The notes under the pieces were generated by a model. That model had not been told where the DNA came from. It made no database searches and saw only the letters and a list, made by a program, of their open reading frames with translations. DNA of 44,525 nt from an uncultured Candidatus Saccharibacteria bacterium (lineage in GTDB: Bacteria; Patescibacteriota; Minisyncoccia; Phycocordibacterales; JACOZG01), in assembly GCA_964648765.1 (NCBI GenBank), contig CAZYLF010000001.1:434107-478631 (forward strand), read 5' to 3'. The position numbers were made by a program, and so were the translations under genes. Below, in pieces: positions 30,111 through 34,658 of the stretch (within the stretch, counting starts at the first letter, position 1; each line of letters begins with the position of its first letter).

Positions 30111-30139
30111 TTGACAATTCAATTTAAAAGGCGTAGTTT
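30111..30139 (+). promoter_or_regulatory. Sigma70-like promoter TTGACA-N17-TAGTTT (paralog 1)
   Basis: -35 at 30111-30116, -10 at 30134-30139. Same architecture upstream of each paralog. Confidence 0.6.
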
Positions 30140-30199
30140 CTGAAATAGATAGTCCGTGGTTGTCACGGCGTTAAAAGGTCCTTTAAAGCGGAGACGACA

Positions 30200-30955
30200 A
30201 TGACTGAAAGTCAAAAGAGAAGGATTGAAAATCTCACGCAAGAGGCGGAACTCCTTTTTGCCTGGGAGGAGCTGATTGAGGATGAGAAAATTCACAAACT
30301 TGATGCGATCAATGAATTGAGTAATCGATTCCGGCACTTTTCGCCCGATCTGCAGGATATCTGGGCTGATATTATGCACTCGGGTAAATCGCTTAGTGAT
30401 GCGATTAATCTTCATGGTGAGAATTTTTCGCCATTCACTAAGCGTTTCATTATGCTCGGTGAACCTATGGGCGAGTTGCCCTACCTGCTGGACTATGCAG
30501 CCACGACCGCCATACAATTGGCGGGGAGCCTGCAACTTGGCCACGAAGTGAAGGAAGAGGAAGTTGATTTGATGATTGATTTCCGAATTCTCAATTGGCT
30601 GATTTCTGGAGAGGGTATGTCTTTTAGCGAATCTTGTCGCGCTGTGGCCAGTTGCACTTCATCCGAAATGCGCCCGGTCTGGCTTGACACAGCCGAAAGG
30701 TCGGATAATGGTCAAAAATTTTCTGAAGCAATGAGGAGTTTCTCTAAATTTTTTCCGCCTCAAAGTGAAGTGATCTTGAAAATTGGTGATGATCCGGAAA
30801 AAACGGAGGATGCAATTTTTCAGCTCACTTGCGAGTGCGAGAGGCGAGCCCTTGGTTGGGCTATTGCCAGCTTGAGCCTCGCTATATATGGAAAGGAGTT
30901 GAAAGAATCTTTGGAGCAAAGTTTTAAAGAATGGAATGCCGAGCAGTTTGCCTAA
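30200..30955 (+). CDS. Soluble PilC/GspF-like protein, paralog 1 (two T2SSF-like domains, no TM helices)
   Basis: 251 aa, SD ggaga. 'SGKSLSDAINLHGENFSPFTKRFIMLGEPMGELPYLLDYA', and a second, more degenerate copy 'NGQKFSEAMRSFSKFFPPQSEVILKIGDDPEKTEDAI'. Confidence 0.75.
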   Translation: MTESQKRRIENLTQEAELLFAWEELIEDEKIHKLDAINELSNRFRHFSPDLQDIWADIMHSGKSLSDAINLHGENFSPFTKRFIMLGEPMGELPYLLDYAATTAIQLAGSLQLGHEVKEEEVDLMIDFRILNWLISGEGMSFSESCRAVASCTSSEMRPVWLDTAERSDNGQKFSEAMRSFSKFFPPQSEVILKIGDDPEKTEDAIFQLTCECERRALGWAIASLSLAIYGKELKESLEQSFKEWNAEQFA

Positions 30956-30976
30956 TTTTGGCAAACAACTCTTGAG

Positions 30977-31015
30977 CCGCCGAGTAATCTTATGTGGATG
31001 AAAGGCGGTTTTTTT
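30977..31015 (+). terminator. Conserved structured terminator hairpin (copy 1)
   Basis: CCGCC-GAGTA-ATC-ttatgtg-GAT-GAAA-GGCGG followed by seven T. Confidence 0.65.
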
Positions 31016-31020
31016 ATTTC

Positions 31021-31049
31021 TTGACGTATTTTAAAATAAAGAGTAGTTT
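31021..31049 (+). promoter_or_regulatory. Sigma70-like promoter TTGACG-N17-TAGTTT (paralog 2)
   Basis: -35 at 31021-31026, -10 at 31044-31049. Confidence 0.6.
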
Positions 31050-31097
31050 GAGGTTTGGGTAGTTGGTAATATTCGGTACTTTAACAGGAGGTTAGTC

Positions 31098-31883
31098 ATG
31101 CAAAAACTGGCTCAGACTGCAGGAAATTATGAGGAGGCGGGAGTTCTTTCTTTATTGGGCGCCCTAATCGAGTCGGGTGTGCCGATACTTGAGGCCATAA
31201 ATCTGGCTGGTGGTACTTCAAAACGTTTTGAAGTACCAATGAAAAAAATGCACGATGAAATAGCTAGTGGGTCATCATTTGCTGAAGCACTGAGTAATTC
31301 GGGTGAATTTTCTTGGTTTGTTCCAAGACTACTTGGTGCAGCAGAGAATTGTGGGATGCTGGACAAGGCTCTAGAGCGCGCAAGCTCTTTGCTTACAAAG
31401 ATGGTTGAGATTTCGGAGAGTATCCATGTCGTGAATACGGAAGAAATTGAGGTGATGCTTGACTTCGAGATTTTCGAGCATCTTTTTGTTAAGGCTGATT
31501 TACCTGTTTCGCGAAGTCTTAAGATTCTTGCGAGGCATTCTTCTGAAAGACTTCGTGATGCCTGGGATTCTGTGACAAAAGAGATCGAGAAGAGCTCTAC
31601 CCTCTCAGAGGCAATGGCGAAGCGGCCTGATGACTTCTCTCCCCACATCGTTGCCATGATCAAGGCAGGTGAGAGTGGGGGGATTCTCGATCTGATTTTG
31701 CCAATGATCGTGAGGCACTATGAGCGAAAGATCTTTGATCCAGCCCATCTTACTCTCCGAAGGCTCCTAAGTAATCCTGATTTTGTAAAATCTCTTGAGC
31801 GAGGGATTGACGCCATTGAAGCTGGCCGTGTTGAAGTATTTGAGGATGATGAATTAGATGAACCTTCTGGCCCAGGAATTTGA
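31098..31883 (+). CDS. Soluble PilC/GspF-like protein, paralog 2 (two T2SSF-like domains, no TM helices)
   Basis: 261 aa, SD AGGAGG. 'LLGALIESGVPILEAINLAGG...MHDEIASGSSFAEALSNSGEFSWFVPRLLGAAENCGMLDKALERAS' and 'DLPVSRSLKILARH...VTKEIEKSSTLSEAMAKRPDDFSPHIVAMIKAGESGGILDLILPMIVRHYE'. Confidence 0.85.
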   Translation: MQKLAQTAGNYEEAGVLSLLGALIESGVPILEAINLAGGTSKRFEVPMKKMHDEIASGSSFAEALSNSGEFSWFVPRLLGAAENCGMLDKALERASSLLTKMVEISESIHVVNTEEIEVMLDFEIFEHLFVKADLPVSRSLKILARHSSERLRDAWDSVTKEIEKSSTLSEAMAKRPDDFSPHIVAMIKAGESGGILDLILPMIVRHYERKIFDPAHLTLRRLLSNPDFVKSLERGIDAIEAGRVEVFEDDELDEPSGPGI

Positions 31884-31914
31884 GATTCACGCTTTGGAAG
31901 GTTCAAAAATTCGA

Positions 31915-31952
31915 CCGCCGAGTAACCTGTAATAGGTGAAAGGCGGTTTTTT
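31915..31952 (+). terminator. Conserved structured terminator hairpin (copy 2)
   Basis: CCGCC-GAGTA-ACCT-gtaat-AGGT-GAAA-GGCGG followed by six T. Confidence 0.7.
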
Positions 31953-32959: not shown

Positions 32960-33019
32960 GATGAGTGGAAGTGATCGCGGACGGTCACGATTGGGTTATT
33001 TGAAAGGGAGGATGAGAAT

Positions 33020-33718
33020 ATGTCATGTAATTGCGTAGAAAATCAGAAGCTTGCGGCCAAGTACCGGAATTTGGCTCGGGTGCTCAATGTGTGGGTAAAT
33101 TTGATTTTAGCGGGCAAACCAGCTCGGACAATCTTTGAGCTTTTGGGTAAAGAGTTCTCAGAATTTGAGGACTACTTTGAGTATGTAGCGCAGCAGTTTG
33201 AGGCAGGGCACTCATTGGGCGACATTTTGAGGAATGGAAAGCTCAGAATTTTCGAAGATGACTTTGTTATCCACTCACTTTCAGTGGGAGAGGACACCGG
33301 TGACCTTGATACAATAATGCGTCGTGTTGCTGGGACGCTGAATGTATTCGCGGGATGTTTTGCAAAGGGTATAACCCCAGATGTGGAAAGGTTTGCTTTG
33401 TCCCGTGACCTAGACAATCTTTCATTAATCACGATTGATATACTAAATTATCTTAGGTCTGGCCTGAAAGAAATCCACGCCCATTCATTTTGGAAGCACC
33501 GAGATGTTTGGGGAAAGATGGCAAAGATGGTGGATGAGATTTCTCCTGATGAGTGCACTCTGATTAAGCTGATGTCGAAGTTCCCAGATGTTTTTCCGGC
33601 CTATGTGCTTGCTGGACTAGAGATTGATGAAAAGTTAGTTCCTGAAACATCTGTGTCGGACATGCTTTCACGGTTTGCTGATTGTGAAGAGCAAGCGGCT
33701 TTCAGCAACATCCGATGA
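33020..33718 (+). CDS. Soluble PilC/GspF-like protein, paralog 4 (most divergent)
   Basis: 232 aa, SD GGGAGG. 'LILAGKPARTIFELLGKEF...QQFEAGHSLGDILRNGKLRIFEDDFVIHSLSVGEDTGDLDTIMRRV'. The second domain is weak. Confidence 0.7.
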   Translation: MSCNCVENQKLAAKYRNLARVLNVWVNLILAGKPARTIFELLGKEFSEFEDYFEYVAQQFEAGHSLGDILRNGKLRIFEDDFVIHSLSVGEDTGDLDTIMRRVAGTLNVFAGCFAKGITPDVERFALSRDLDNLSLITIDILNYLRSGLKEIHAHSFWKHRDVWGKMAKMVDEISPDECTLIKLMSKFPDVFPAYVLAGLEIDEKLVPETSVSDMLSRFADCEEQAAFSNIR

Positions 33719-33742
33719 CGTTGAATCCAAGTTAAACACCGA

Positions 33743-33780
33743 CCGCCGAGTAGTCCACTATGGATGAAAGGCGGTTTTTT
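33743..33780 (+). terminator. Conserved structured terminator hairpin (copy 4)
   Basis: CCGCC-GAGTA-GTCC-actat-GGAT-GAAA-GGCGG followed by six T. Confidence 0.7.
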
Positions 33781-33787
33781 ATTTTGC

Positions 33788-33815
33788 TTGACTTTTTGGC
33801 AGAGCATGTTAAACT
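33788..33815 (+). promoter_or_regulatory. Putative promoter TTGACT-N16-TAAACT
   Basis: -35 at 33788-33793, -10 at 33810-33815. It differs from the TAGTTT-type promoters upstream. Confidence 0.4.
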
Positions 33816-33883
33816 GAACACGAGTTCTTTGTTATTGGGATTTAAGGGATATTGGCTCTAATACAGCCAGAAAGGAAGTCAAG

Positions 33884-34600
33884 ATGACAAGCGGAACGTT
33901 GGTGCGTCAAGGTGTGCCTGATGTTGAGGTTGGAGGCCAGCCAGATATCTATGGCCTCAAACAACTTGCCACGGAGGCAGAGGAGAGGTTTGGCTACACT
34001 TATCTTAAGGAAAAGGTGGACAAGGATGACGTCGAAAATGGCCACAGTGCGCGAATGCGCTTTCTTGCGGAAATTGACACGTTACCTTTTACTGAAAAGT
34101 CCGTGCGTGATTACAAGGCGAAAAAGGTAAAGGAGGATACGCCGCTTATTGTGCGTTGGTTTGGGGCTGAAACGACAGATCGAATTGCTGGCGTCTATTT
34201 CCTCCTACTGTGCCTTTTTGCGTTTGTGCTTTTGATTGCAAATGCTGCGGGATACTTTGGTCAGTCGACGCTGTCAGGATTACGTACGATGTCGCTTCTT
34301 AATGGAGTTTTTATCTCTTTGGTGGTTGTTCTCATGGTTATGGTGGTCCAATGGGATGGCCCTAGAGAGCCTTCATACTGGAACAGAAAAGATTTACGTG
34401 GTTACGAGGCGCCAATTCCAGAATTTGCTCTCGCCTGCGCTTTGGAGGTTGAGAAGAAGTTCCCTGGTGGTTACTTCTATGTTGAAGAGTTTATCTCCGG
34501 CGTCAGGCTCGATCCATTCCTTGTGTGGAAGATCAACGGTAGTGAGTATCATCTGCATGTGTGGAATGAGGCCGACTTCAAGGGTGAGCGGGAAGTGTAA
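33884..34600 (+). CDS. Hypothetical two-TM membrane protein, last gene of the island
   Basis: 238 aa, SD AAGGAAG. TM-like 'IAGVYFLLLCLFAFVLLIANAAGYF' and 'LLNGVFISLVVVLMVMVVQW'. No family recognised. Confidence 0.7.
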   Translation: MTSGTLVRQGVPDVEVGGQPDIYGLKQLATEAEERFGYTYLKEKVDKDDVENGHSARMRFLAEIDTLPFTEKSVRDYKAKKVKEDTPLIVRWFGAETTDRIAGVYFLLLCLFAFVLLIANAAGYFGQSTLSGLRTMSLLNGVFISLVVVLMVMVVQWDGPREPSYWNRKDLRGYEAPIPEFALACALEVEKKFPGGYFYVEEFISGVRLDPFLVWKINGSEYHLHVWNEADFKGEREV

Positions 34601-34626
34601 AGCAGTTCTGTGAGTGTTTAAGTACG

Positions 34627-34658
34627 CCGCCGGAAGGGTATCCTTCCGGCGGTTTTTT
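34627..34658 (+). terminator. Rho-independent terminator (unrelated in sequence to the conserved hairpins)
   Basis: ccgccggaagg-gtat-ccttccggcgg (11-bp stem) followed by six T. It abuts the fmt stop codon on the other strand. Confidence 0.75.

Follow-up and report, generated by a model that had tools for sequence, protein, structure and literature searches.

Inner-membrane platform proteins of the PilC/GspF kind are modelled as trimers in which six cytoplasmic (Cyto) domains form an alternating Cyto1/Cyto2 ring, and the PulE6:PulF3 model puts every Cyto domain in contact with a single N2 domain of the ATPase (PMC10790770). Tad pili have a split platform, TadB/TadC, in which several smaller T2SSF paralogs share the platform function (PMC10790770). 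Type IV pili (T4P) are also subject to small soluble modulators that bind the extension ATPase, such as phage Tip, Aqs1 and Zip, host CpiA and PilZ/FimX, with Tip mapping to N2 of PilB (PMC11656802). At least one report describes T4P as well conserved in Patescibacteria (PMC11623550), the group (CPR; Paceibacteria-type) to which the host of the present locus belongs, in line with the original prediction of a CPR host. Within the window, the whole 44.5-kb stretch of DNA analysed here, we describe a tandem array of four genes encoding T2SSF-type proteins that lack transmembrane (TM) helices.

The genes lie on the forward strand at 30200–33718 and encode proteins of 251 aa (P1, 30200..30955), 261 aa (P2, 31098..31883), 273 aa (P3, 32050..32871) and 232 aa (P4, 33020..33718). 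The P3 start is an ATG with a GGAG Shine–Dalgarno (SD) site; an upstream TTG would give 278 aa. All four are intact open reading frames, similar in length and preceded by strong SD sites, no frameshifts or TM-coding remnants were traced in them, and their pairwise identity of 20–31% agrees with their earlier description as highly diverged paralogs. The island's last gene, P5 (33884..34600, forward strand, 238 aa), encodes the expected closing protein with two TM helices (~101–123 and ~137–157; hydropathy 2.9 and 2.6), matched no family and no PDB entry, and is convergent with fmt (34657–35496, reverse strand).

Each of P1–P4 exceeds the gathering score (25.2 bits) of the Pfam T2SSF model (PF00482), with two matched stretches in P1 (E = 6.5e-10), P2 (1.9e-28; the best-conserved paralog) and P3 (4.6e-20), and one in P4 (7e-8; the most divergent). 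Matches end at about profile position 83–92 of 125 and so leave the membrane portion of the profile uncovered. Maximum 19-residue Kyte–Doolittle hydropathy is about 0.9–1.8 (0.89 in P1), compared with 2.8–3.2 in canonical PilC hits, and the scan found no hydrophobic segment of TM-helix length, upholding the claim of soluble, TM-less T2SSF proteins. Structure models were made for two paralogs. The AlphaFold2 model of P2 (pLDDT 88) has 6+6 helices, making the cytoplasmic domain a six-helix bundle rather than the four-helix domain first supposed; domain 1 spans residues ~12–107 and domain 2 ~114–213, beyond which the chain continues as a helical C-terminal stretch and ends in an acidic, disordered tail. 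Foldseek paired this model with OutF, EpsF, PilC and TcpE at target-normalised TM-scores of 0.71–0.84, and a sequence search of the PDB with P2 returned PilC, EpsF and OutF. The P4 model (pLDDT 89, 12 helices) matched T2SSF cytoplasmic domains at TM-scores of 0.66–0.75, and both models thus recover the fold of the published domains, as anticipated.

The GE..G.L motif is kept in domain 1 of all four paralogs, whereas the GE..G..L motif of domain 2 is lost or degenerate in P1 and P4, which may reflect relaxed constraint or another partner. Two domain copies had been proposed for every paralog: Pfam recovers both in P1–P3, but the second copy in P4 is degenerate, lacks the GE..G..L helix and is missed by Pfam, being recovered solely by the family profile described below (to position 191 of 217) and the AlphaFold2 helix pattern. 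Conservation is strongest at residues that true PilC/GspF proteins also conserve.

Sequence places P1–P4 in an unnamed metagenomic family whose members carry several T2SSF domains and no TM helices. In an exhaustive search, ~35 of the 150 best representatives were TM-less with two, three or four contiguous T2SSF domains; examples include P0128, P0129, P0132, P0138 and P0271, the three-domain P0130 and P0131, and the four-domain P0124 and P0125. A profile built from TM-less proteins of other organisms only, with the window proteins excluded, matched each paralog as one contiguous stretch running through the two domains and the linker between them (E = 2e-22 to 2e-58; P1 4e-33, P3 6e-43, and P4 2e-22 over positions 3–191 of 217). 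The paralogs and the family share contiguous domains, the same linker, the lack of TM helices, a helix of EEA.VL type at the N terminus and, in domain 2, a Trp specific to the family, at only 20–31% identity, and P1–P4 are as distant from one another as from members in other genomes. Sources that name family members use only the generic label 'type II secretion system F family protein', and a literature search found no published description of TM-less T2SSF proteins of this sort. The original prediction had raised a survey for such proteins and their arrays; all members sampled elsewhere are single-copy, in contrast to the four in tandem here with their repeated promoter and terminator cassettes.

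These cassettes conform to the proposed arrangement of independent promoter–gene–terminator units. Exact TTGAC-N18-TAGTTT, equivalent to TTGAC(A/G)-N17-TAGTTT, has four matches, all on the forward strand: upstream of P1 (30111..30139, TTGACA), P2 (31021..31049, TTGACG), P3 (31958..31986, TTGACG) and P4 (32931..32959, TTGACA). With one mismatch allowed, the window holds six against 0.78 expected, and no shuffle gave six. The P5 promoter (33788..33815, forward strand) reads TTGACT-N16-TAAACT. Leader hairpins follow the promoters of P3 (31997–32014) and P4 (32971–32988), and the element GAGTGGA(A)GTGATC-N6-GGTCAC noted earlier is indeed common to these two leaders. Terminators 1–4 (30977..31015, 31915..31952, 32888..32925 and 33743..33780, forward strand) are of a repeated two-tier type, in terminator 1 a hairpin CCGCC-GAGUAA-[stem-loop]-UGAAA-GGCGG with a T-run after it; terminators 2 and 3 are identical in stem and loop, and the motif GCCGAGTAR-N8-22-GAAAGGC occurs four times against 0.00 expected. 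Terminator 5 (34626..34659, forward strand), a perfect 12-bp hairpin facing fmt, is of a different type. Short-read assemblies break at terminator 2. The cassette repeats comprise a 59-nt family in four copies and an 83-nt pair 90% identical, and the regulatory cassettes are 69–90% identical. From these signals we infer that P1–P4 are expressed cytoplasmic proteins. Four very divergent copies with near-identical promoters and terminators suggest co-regulated factors with different specificities, which could differ by ATPase target or by machine.

Architectures elsewhere in the family point to the motor ATPase. In P0160, T2SSF domains stand where a GspE/PilB-like ATPase would have its N1 domain, and the ATPase part matches GspE model positions 101–486; a T2SSE ATPase gene ends 40 nt before the gene for four-domain P0124, and another T2SSE gene is close by; and in P0189 two T2SSF domains are fused to a region weakly resembling PilM. 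Since relatives are fused or adjacent to the motor ATPase, the likeliest role for P1–P4 is to bind this motor and tune it, and we tentatively favour, at not quite an even chance, a reading in which these soluble platform-domain proteins attach to PilB/PilT-type ATPases at their N2 domains and modulate pilus machines. Each is made up of the two ATPase-facing six-helix PilC/GspF domains, joined by a short helical linker at the usual site of the TM1–TM2 hairpin, without TM3 and without the N-domain. On hexameric ATPases of the PilB/PilT/GspE type they would dock on the N2 domains, the surface modelled as contacted by the cytoplasmic domains of membrane PilC, and would there compete with the membrane platform or take its place, tuning the engagement of T4P motors. 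The binding partner in the host organism is inferred from the fusions and neighbourhoods of other members; as to the sign of the effect, our guess slightly favours inhibition or sequestration. The earlier idea of T4P/T2SS ATPase binding gains indirect backing from P0160, P0124, P0189 and the PulF–N2 model (PMC10790770). Because most two-domain members are singletons among housekeeping genes (e.g. ClpP, RsmE, DNA polymerase III alpha, ThrRS) with no pilus genes nearby, this link comes from a few fused or adjacent members, 20–30% identical to P1–P4. The window itself counts against motor binding: Pfam on its larger open reading frames found no ATPase, pilin or platform gene, and its lack of any T2SSE Walker A or pilin leader motif accords with the prediction that no pilB, pilT or pilin genes adjoin the array.

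P1–P4 might instead act on the platform, inserting into or capping the cytoplasmic ring of membrane PilC so that mixed oligomers poison, stabilise or re-specify it. In the PulF model, as in the crystal dimers of EpsF and PilC, the conserved Cyto patches serve as oligomerisation interfaces (PMC10790770), the domain 1 motif is retained throughout the array, and P5 might tether P1–P4 to the membrane; the fused and adjacent family members, however, indicate the ATPase, not PilC, and no TM proteins surround P0124, and we regard this alternative as improbable.

A second alternative starts from the island's distribution. The 5.7-kb island is wholly absent from two relatives (L014 and L013; PriA 88% and 78% identical), in which PPIase adjoins fmt-def-priA, a direct demonstration of the predicted insertion between the cyclophilin gene and fmt-def-priA; U and P5 are absent from both. 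The island is strain-specific and, since close relatives do without it, accessory. U (29104..29811, forward strand), a 235-aa open reading frame equipped with an SD site and a terminator (~29822–29860) of its own, belongs to strain-specific DNA between the PPIase terminator and an sRNA-like element, and matched nothing in Pfam, NCBIfam, PHROG, PADLOC or the PDB. That element, a candidate small RNA (29880..30105, forward strand), is structured and non-coding (MFE -92 kcal/mol, z = -5.4), has a terminator hairpin at 30082–30100, matched no Rfam family, and is 76% identical to its L014 counterpart, with an invariant core CCGGCCTC(T/G)GCGTAGAGGCTGGTCCA. As it is kept in an island-less relative, the variable DNA is split into two insertions. 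An acquired exclusion or anti-pilus cassette array, switching off pili to keep out pilus-dependent phages or competing symbionts by analogy with phage Tip/Aqs1/Zip or host CpiA, would fit the island's absence from these relatives; rapid diversification would explain 20–30% paralog identity, with P1–P4 as divergent mutually as from other genomes' members yet furnished with cassettes of much higher identity, and known T4P inhibitors do target PilB, Tip at N2 (PMC11656802). We nevertheless think it unlikely. Neither the island nor the DNA next to it contains an integrase, transposase or phage gene, phage genomes, IMG/VR, PHROGs, PADLOC and BFVD gave no phage or defence match, and GC and GC3 are near the values for the housekeeping genes around the island. 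In L014 the conserved sRNA-like element likewise ends in a terminator of the island's unusual type, arguing for evolution in place or loss in relatives, not import; the mobile or exclusion flavour of the original prediction gained no support.

Equally doubtful is recruitment of the six-helix bundle for a role unrelated to pili or secretion ATPases, e.g. as a scaffold for another partner: the housekeeping surroundings of most family members, a window free of pilus genes and the occurrence of the fold in SpoIIIAB favour it, but three independent architectures connect the soluble domains with T4P/T2SS components and the best-conserved residues coincide with those of bona fide PilC/GspF. That P1–P4 are functionless, decaying remnants of duplicated pilC genes minus their membrane segments, despite degenerate second domains in P1 and P4 and relatives that dispense with the island, is very improbable given intact, SD-equipped frames with matched promoters and terminators, high AlphaFold2 confidence, and a TM-less architecture with the same linker recurring across many unrelated metagenomic genomes.

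Returning to soluble ATPase-binding modulators as the preferred reading, P1–P4 can be set beside known systems. SpoIIIAB, a component of the sporulation channel, partners the T2SSE-like ATPase SpoIIIAA. It has a T2SSF-like helical bundle outside classical T4P/T2SS (Foldseek probability 0.87–0.95), but is membrane-anchored, single-domain and part of Firmicutes sporulation, with a TM-score of only ~0.6. The PilB-binding regulators and inhibitors provide the proposed working model without sequence or fold kinship; those inhibitors are not platform-domain homologs, and the island has no phage context. TadB and TadC each retain TM segments and lie in tad operons, whereas P1–P4 have two domains each and no TM segment. 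Platform proteins of the PilC/GspF kind are ~400 aa long with three TM segments and an N-domain; P1–P4, at 230–270 aa, have neither TM segments nor N-domain, do not adjoin pilB, pilT or pilin genes, and score 16–85 bits against the NCBIfam platform equivalogs, far under cut-offs of 240–700. Lacking all three TM segments, they are unable to build the ion channel proposed for the platform and have no Tyr-Pro/Glu-Pro pore residues. In their two tandem six-helix T2SSF domains and GE..G.L motif, P1–P4 nonetheless resemble the PilC/GspF (PulF, EpsF, OutF)/TcpE inner-membrane platform, whose members are their best matches in both sequence and structure.

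Six forward-strand ORFs lie between a cyclophilin-type PPIase gene (28353–28955, +) and the convergent fmt-def-priA genes (34657–37873, −): the 235-aa ORF U (29104–29811), the four paralogs P1 (30200–30955), P2 (31098–31883), P3 (32050–32871) and P4 (33020–33718), and P5 (33884–34600), which has two clear transmembrane (TM) helices (Kyte–Doolittle 2.9 and 2.6). All four paralogs scored above the gathering score of 25.2 bits for Pfam T2SSF (PF00482), most strongly P2 (E = 1.9e-28, 99.4 bits), followed by P3 (E = 4.6e-20, 72.3 bits), P1 (E = 6.5e-10, 39.5 bits) and P4 (E = 7e-8, 32.9 bits). 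Matches comprised two stretches in P1–P3 and one in P4, and all stopped at about profile position 83–92 of 125, ahead of the membrane part of the model; the maximum 19-residue Kyte–Doolittle mean was 0.9–1.8 in P1–P4, compared with 2.8–3.2 in canonical PilC matches. The paralogs share 20–31% protein identity pairwise, with synonymous sites saturated. The GE..G..L motif is lost from domain 2 of P1, and domain 2 of P4 is degenerate: it lacks the GE..G..L helix and escaped the Pfam scan, though a family profile reached it, matching as far as position 191 of 217, and an AlphaFold2 model shows six helices there. The original prediction of soluble, strongly diverged T2SSF proteins therefore held for all four, and that of two domain copies in each held for P1–P3, the second copy in P4 being too degenerate for Pfam. 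P5 had no match in Pfam, NCBIfam, PHROG, PADLOC or PDB, and we rejected it as a detached membrane part of PilC, as it shows no similarity to T2SSF and its helices contain neither Tyr-Pro nor Glu-Pro.

Structure prediction covered two of the four paralogs, P2 and the most divergent, P4. The AlphaFold2 model of P2 (pLDDT 88) comprises two six-helix bundles with a short linker between them, then a C-terminal helical stretch and a disordered acidic tail; that of P4 (pLDDT 89) has 12 helices. Foldseek against PDB matched P2 to PilC in the model of the T4aP machine and to cytoplasmic-domain crystal structures of OutF, EpsF, Thermus PilC and TcpE (target-normalised TM-score 0.71–0.84), and P4 to the same structures (0.66–0.75), with probabilities of 0.98–1.00 for T2SSF cytoplasmic-domain matches. 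A PDB sequence search with P2 returned the same platform proteins. As modelled, P2 and P4 have the six-helix cytoplasmic bundle fold of EpsF, OutF, PilC-N and TcpE, so that the proposed comparison with EpsF and Thermus PilC was borne out, whereas the four-helix domain first described gives way to the six-helix bundles of the P2 model.

Close homologs of P2 were scarce: a word-indexed search of 5.8 billion proteins returned P2 itself and then full-length PilC of ~400 aa, and a search of GTDB species genomes yielded only a Vibrio pilC-like match. When a HMMER profile of the four paralogs was run against 1.84 billion cluster representatives, TM-less proteins ranked above canonical PilC, and ~35 of the best 150 representatives had contiguous T2SSF domains with no hydrophobic segment, in size classes of two (213–266 aa), three (310–341 aa) and four domains (395–488 aa). 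Such proteins form a family found in metagenomes. A profile built from 15 two-domain TM-less proteins, leaving out those of the window, matched P2 (E = 1.6e-58), P3 (6e-43), P1 (4e-33) and P4 (2e-22), each in a single stretch across both domains and the linker. These matches indicate that P1–P4 belong to an unnamed family of TM-less, multi-T2SSF-domain proteins, defined in this analysis, with an EEA.VL helix at the N terminus and, in domain 2, a Trp where Myxococcus PilC has Leu. Source names, where any exist, are the generic ‘type II secretion system F family protein’ or ‘PulF’, and the full-text literature searched, with subscription journals outside its coverage, contained no description of TM-less T2SSF proteins. 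A further search with a profile from a 19-sequence family alignment was dominated by canonical Planctomycetota PilC, with two new TM-less members among the matches listed. The family gene was single-copy at every other locus sampled, mostly among housekeeping genes, and the four-gene tandem array is so far unique to the window among those loci. A neighbour-joining tree was star-like (bootstrap 33% for P2+P3 and 0% for all four paralogs), with P1–P4 as far apart as each is from family proteins of other genomes, and it favoured neither duplication in place nor separate acquisition.

Each paralog gene is preceded by TTGAC(A/G)-N17-TAGTTT, with four exact matches (six in the window if one mismatch is allowed, against 0.78 expected), and by a GGAG-type Shine–Dalgarno site; for P5 the predicted promoter is TTGACT-N16-TAAACT. 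At the 3′ ends of P1–P4 stands a common two-tier terminator, CCGCC-GAGUA(A/G)-(4–5 bp stem-loop)-UGAAA-GGCGG plus a T-run (30977–31015, 31915–31952, 32888–32925 and 33743–33780, all +), found four times in the window against 0.00 expected, with fold z-scores of −3.5 to −4.6. Its inner stem co-varies across copies, and its asymmetric internal loop, 5′-GAGUA(A/G) opposite (U/C)GAAA-3′, is invariant. Because this AGUA/GAA loop, as we take it, resembles the bulged-G (loop E/sarcin–ricin) motif, the putative RNA motif may be a protein-binding element. The terminator was confined to this locus, occurring after P1–P4 and at 3940–3985 (−) of L014, a Logan contig from a relative that lacks the island, and nowhere else in the window or the other loci compared. 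A metagenome scan with GCCGAGTAR-N8-22-GAAAGGC, a pattern that is too short, gave at least 120 single chance matches, two with a T-run, and none of the matches listed lay near a T2SSF-like ORF.

The P2–P3 and P3–P4 spacer cassettes are 90% identical over 83 nt, and the leaders form small hairpins. In keeping with the original prediction, the leaders of P3 and P4 share GAGTGGA(A)GTGATC-N6-GGTCAC and each paralog gene, having its own promoter motif, Shine–Dalgarno site and terminator, appears as an independent unit. The near-identical predicted cassettes contrast sharply with the diverged coding regions, and the locus is a clean example of paralogs that have diverged widely yet retain almost the same promoter and terminator cassettes. 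An integron-type cassette array was considered and rejected: between the genes, the repeats consist of a terminator hairpin with a T-run and then a promoter, inspection found no attC core site, and the window ORFs scanned included no tyrosine recombinase. The only other copies of island DNA recovered, in two independent short-read assemblies (Logan SRR14271335 and SRR14271332), match the window at 100% identity as far as 31943, where both break off within the 83-nt repeat common to the two spacers. Short-read assemblies would usually fragment this array, which may be the reason that such arrays are under-reported.

PriA homologs put the window in Patescibacteria, with named matches in Paceibacterota/Parcubacteria. 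In two relatives, L014 (PriA 88% identical) and GCA_038064235.1 (78%), priA-def-fmt lies directly beside PPIase-HPF across a gap of 222–382 nt, the same gap without the island, which confirms the island first described between the cyclophilin gene and fmt-def-priA. Nucleotide homology between the window and L014 ends at 29005 and restarts at 34672; the intervening 5.7 kb is therefore strain-specific, except for a non-coding element. This candidate small RNA (29880–30105, +), between U and P1, has a strong predicted structure (MFE −92 kcal/mol, z = −5.4) bounded by a promoter-like TTTCTT-N17-TAGTCT and a terminator, and is 76% identical to the gap of L014 (3925–4225, −), with the invariant core CCGGCCUC(U/G)GCGUAGAGGCUGGUCCA. 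Rfam returned only noise and no family for either copy, and predicted pairing with the leaders of U and P1–P5 gave duplex energies no better than shuffled controls (z −0.9 to +0.1). The L014 element ends with the rare terminator type of P1–P4, which argues that the island would have evolved in place, or been lost by recombination in relatives, rather than arrived by mobile-element import. In GC and GC3 the island differs little from the genes around it, and Pfam scans of the window ORFs found no integrase, transposase or phage gene adjoining it. ORF U, without homolog or family in Pfam, NCBIfam, PHROG, PADLOC or PDB, is flanked directly by the PPIase terminator on one side and by the −10 region of the small RNA-like element on the other, replacing a TTGACT −35 box present in L014, and would thus represent a second, separate insertion at an intergenic hot spot.

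Clues to function came from metagenome proteins of the wider family. One, P0160 (747 aa; 4023–6266 on contig L011), carries T2SSF domains N-terminal to a complete GspE/PilB-type ATPase that aligns to GspE model positions 101–486, so the soluble T2SSF domains take the place of the N1 domain. On contig L147, a cluster at 6276–12103 consists of a T2SSE ATPase gene (561 aa), the gene for the TM-less, four-domain P0124 (488 aa; 8001–9467) beginning 40 nt after it, a 110-aa ORF and, ~0.5 kb downstream of P0124, a second T2SSE ATPase gene (703 aa); the neighbours of P0124 include no membrane protein, and the cluster may be a membrane-independent ATPase–platform module. In a third protein, P0189, two T2SSF domains are joined to a region weakly similar to PilM (E = 5e-4, short of the Pfam cut-off). 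Sulfatase and FeoAB genes share the P0160 contig, which has a GC content of 0.63; on the P0124 contig, with a GC content of 0.31, the surroundings look archaeal (TrmB, beta-CASP, radical SAM).

On the basis of modelling and cross-linking, PulF has been proposed to form a trimer with a ring of six cytoplasmic domains, each contacting the N2 domain of one PulE subunit in the model (PMC10790770). The phage inhibitor Tip maps to the same region of PilB, N2, and none of the known PilB cofactors is a platform-domain homolog (PMC11656802). Type IV pili are reported to be well conserved in Patescibacteria (PMC11623550), and we assume from lineage that the target ATPases are present in the host. Because of the three joined family members, the PulF model, the Tip site and the pili of Patescibacteria, we favour, with a confidence a little short of even, the view that P1–P4 would bind the N2 domains of PilB/PilT-type ATPases and so modulate motor–platform engagement. 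Alternatively, the PilC ring itself could be what the proteins act on. A further candidate is an arms-race or exclusion module, but P1–P4 have no homology to known inhibitors and the island has no phage or prophage context: PHROGs gave no match for the island proteins, INPHARED tblastn only one weak partial match, an IMG/VR scan with P2 alone and a BFVD fold search none, and PADLOC defence models none for P1–P5 or U. The T2SSF fold could also have been recycled for an unrelated partner; the ATPase link derives from distant family members, and no T2SSE association was seen among the neighbour genes inspected for the window array or five singleton members. Decay of the P1–P4 genes is the least likely explanation, because the ORFs are intact, their expression signals matched and the architecture recurrent.

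A broader scheme, which we consider unlikely to hold as a whole, would make TM-less T2SSF proteins an unrecognised class of cytoplasmic partners of type IV filament ATPases. Free ‘platform rings’ would cap PilB/PilT hexamers, and some lineages would form membrane-independent ATPase–platform modules, either as fusions or as operons free of neighbouring TM proteins. The array of this CPR bacterium would be an expansion of the class, with four genes that diverge fast and are transcribed separately, and it would set the active pilus motor, and through it host attachment, DNA uptake or phage susceptibility of the episymbiont. Pili are central to the episymbiotic lifestyle of CPR/Patescibacteria (PMC11623550), and a strain-variable T2SSF array could therefore be a determinant of host interaction.

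Of the steps in type IV pilus and type II secretion assembly, communication between the ATPase motor and the PilC/GspF platform is understood least, and present pictures of it are based largely on AlphaFold models (PMC10790770, PMC11656802) because the complete membrane complex is difficult to work with. Natural soluble two-domain platform proteins, some fused to the ATPase, would offer biochemistry and structural biology a tractable handle on this interface, and proteins of the P1–P4 type would add a new kind of endogenous pilus regulator.

Elsewhere in the window, a stand-alone protein of two Clp_N repeats (37833–38639, +; 268 aa as listed) beside priA lacks the AAA+ ATPase module and is a second case of a partner-binding domain without its machine. 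At the N terminus of a 339-aa protein (3628–4647, +) lies a CAP12/Pycsar-type TIR effector domain (Pfam E = 2e-27; PADLOC TIR effector E = 2e-42), with no recognisable cyclase partner among the neighbours scanned. A protein (14–1123, +) that pairs a CHAP domain (peptidoglycan hydrolase) with a region weakly resembling CBM96 is the kind of enzyme that could serve an episymbiont in attacking a host wall. Two patches of high GC (4883–6472 and 15532–16776, both −; GC 0.62–0.63 and GC3 0.73–0.77 in a genome of ~0.41 GC), one with an IS66-family transposase (E = 2e-92) and the other with a trypsin-like serine protease (E = 9e-52), have the look of foreign DNA that arrived recently, or may reflect a chimeric assembly of the first ~23 kb.

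Set against known systems, P1–P4 are members of the T2SSF superfamily outside the GspF/PilC platform family on four counts. The three TM segments (TMS1–3) of the platform proteins are absent; so are the channel residues, and the linker is instead a polar helix of ~25 residues plus a loop. Best scores against the equivalog models (GspF, PilC, HofC, XpsF, ComGB) were 16–85 bits, compared with NCBIfam cut-offs of 240–700. Gene linkage to pilB/gspE, pilT or pilins is lacking, as originally noted for the adjacent genes: motif and Pfam scans of the 44.5-kb window found neither a T2SSE Walker A motif nor a pilin leader motif, and no Pfam match of this kind. In function, P1–P4 may instead resemble the PilB-binding regulators Tip, Aqs1 and CpiA, to which they are unrelated in descent.
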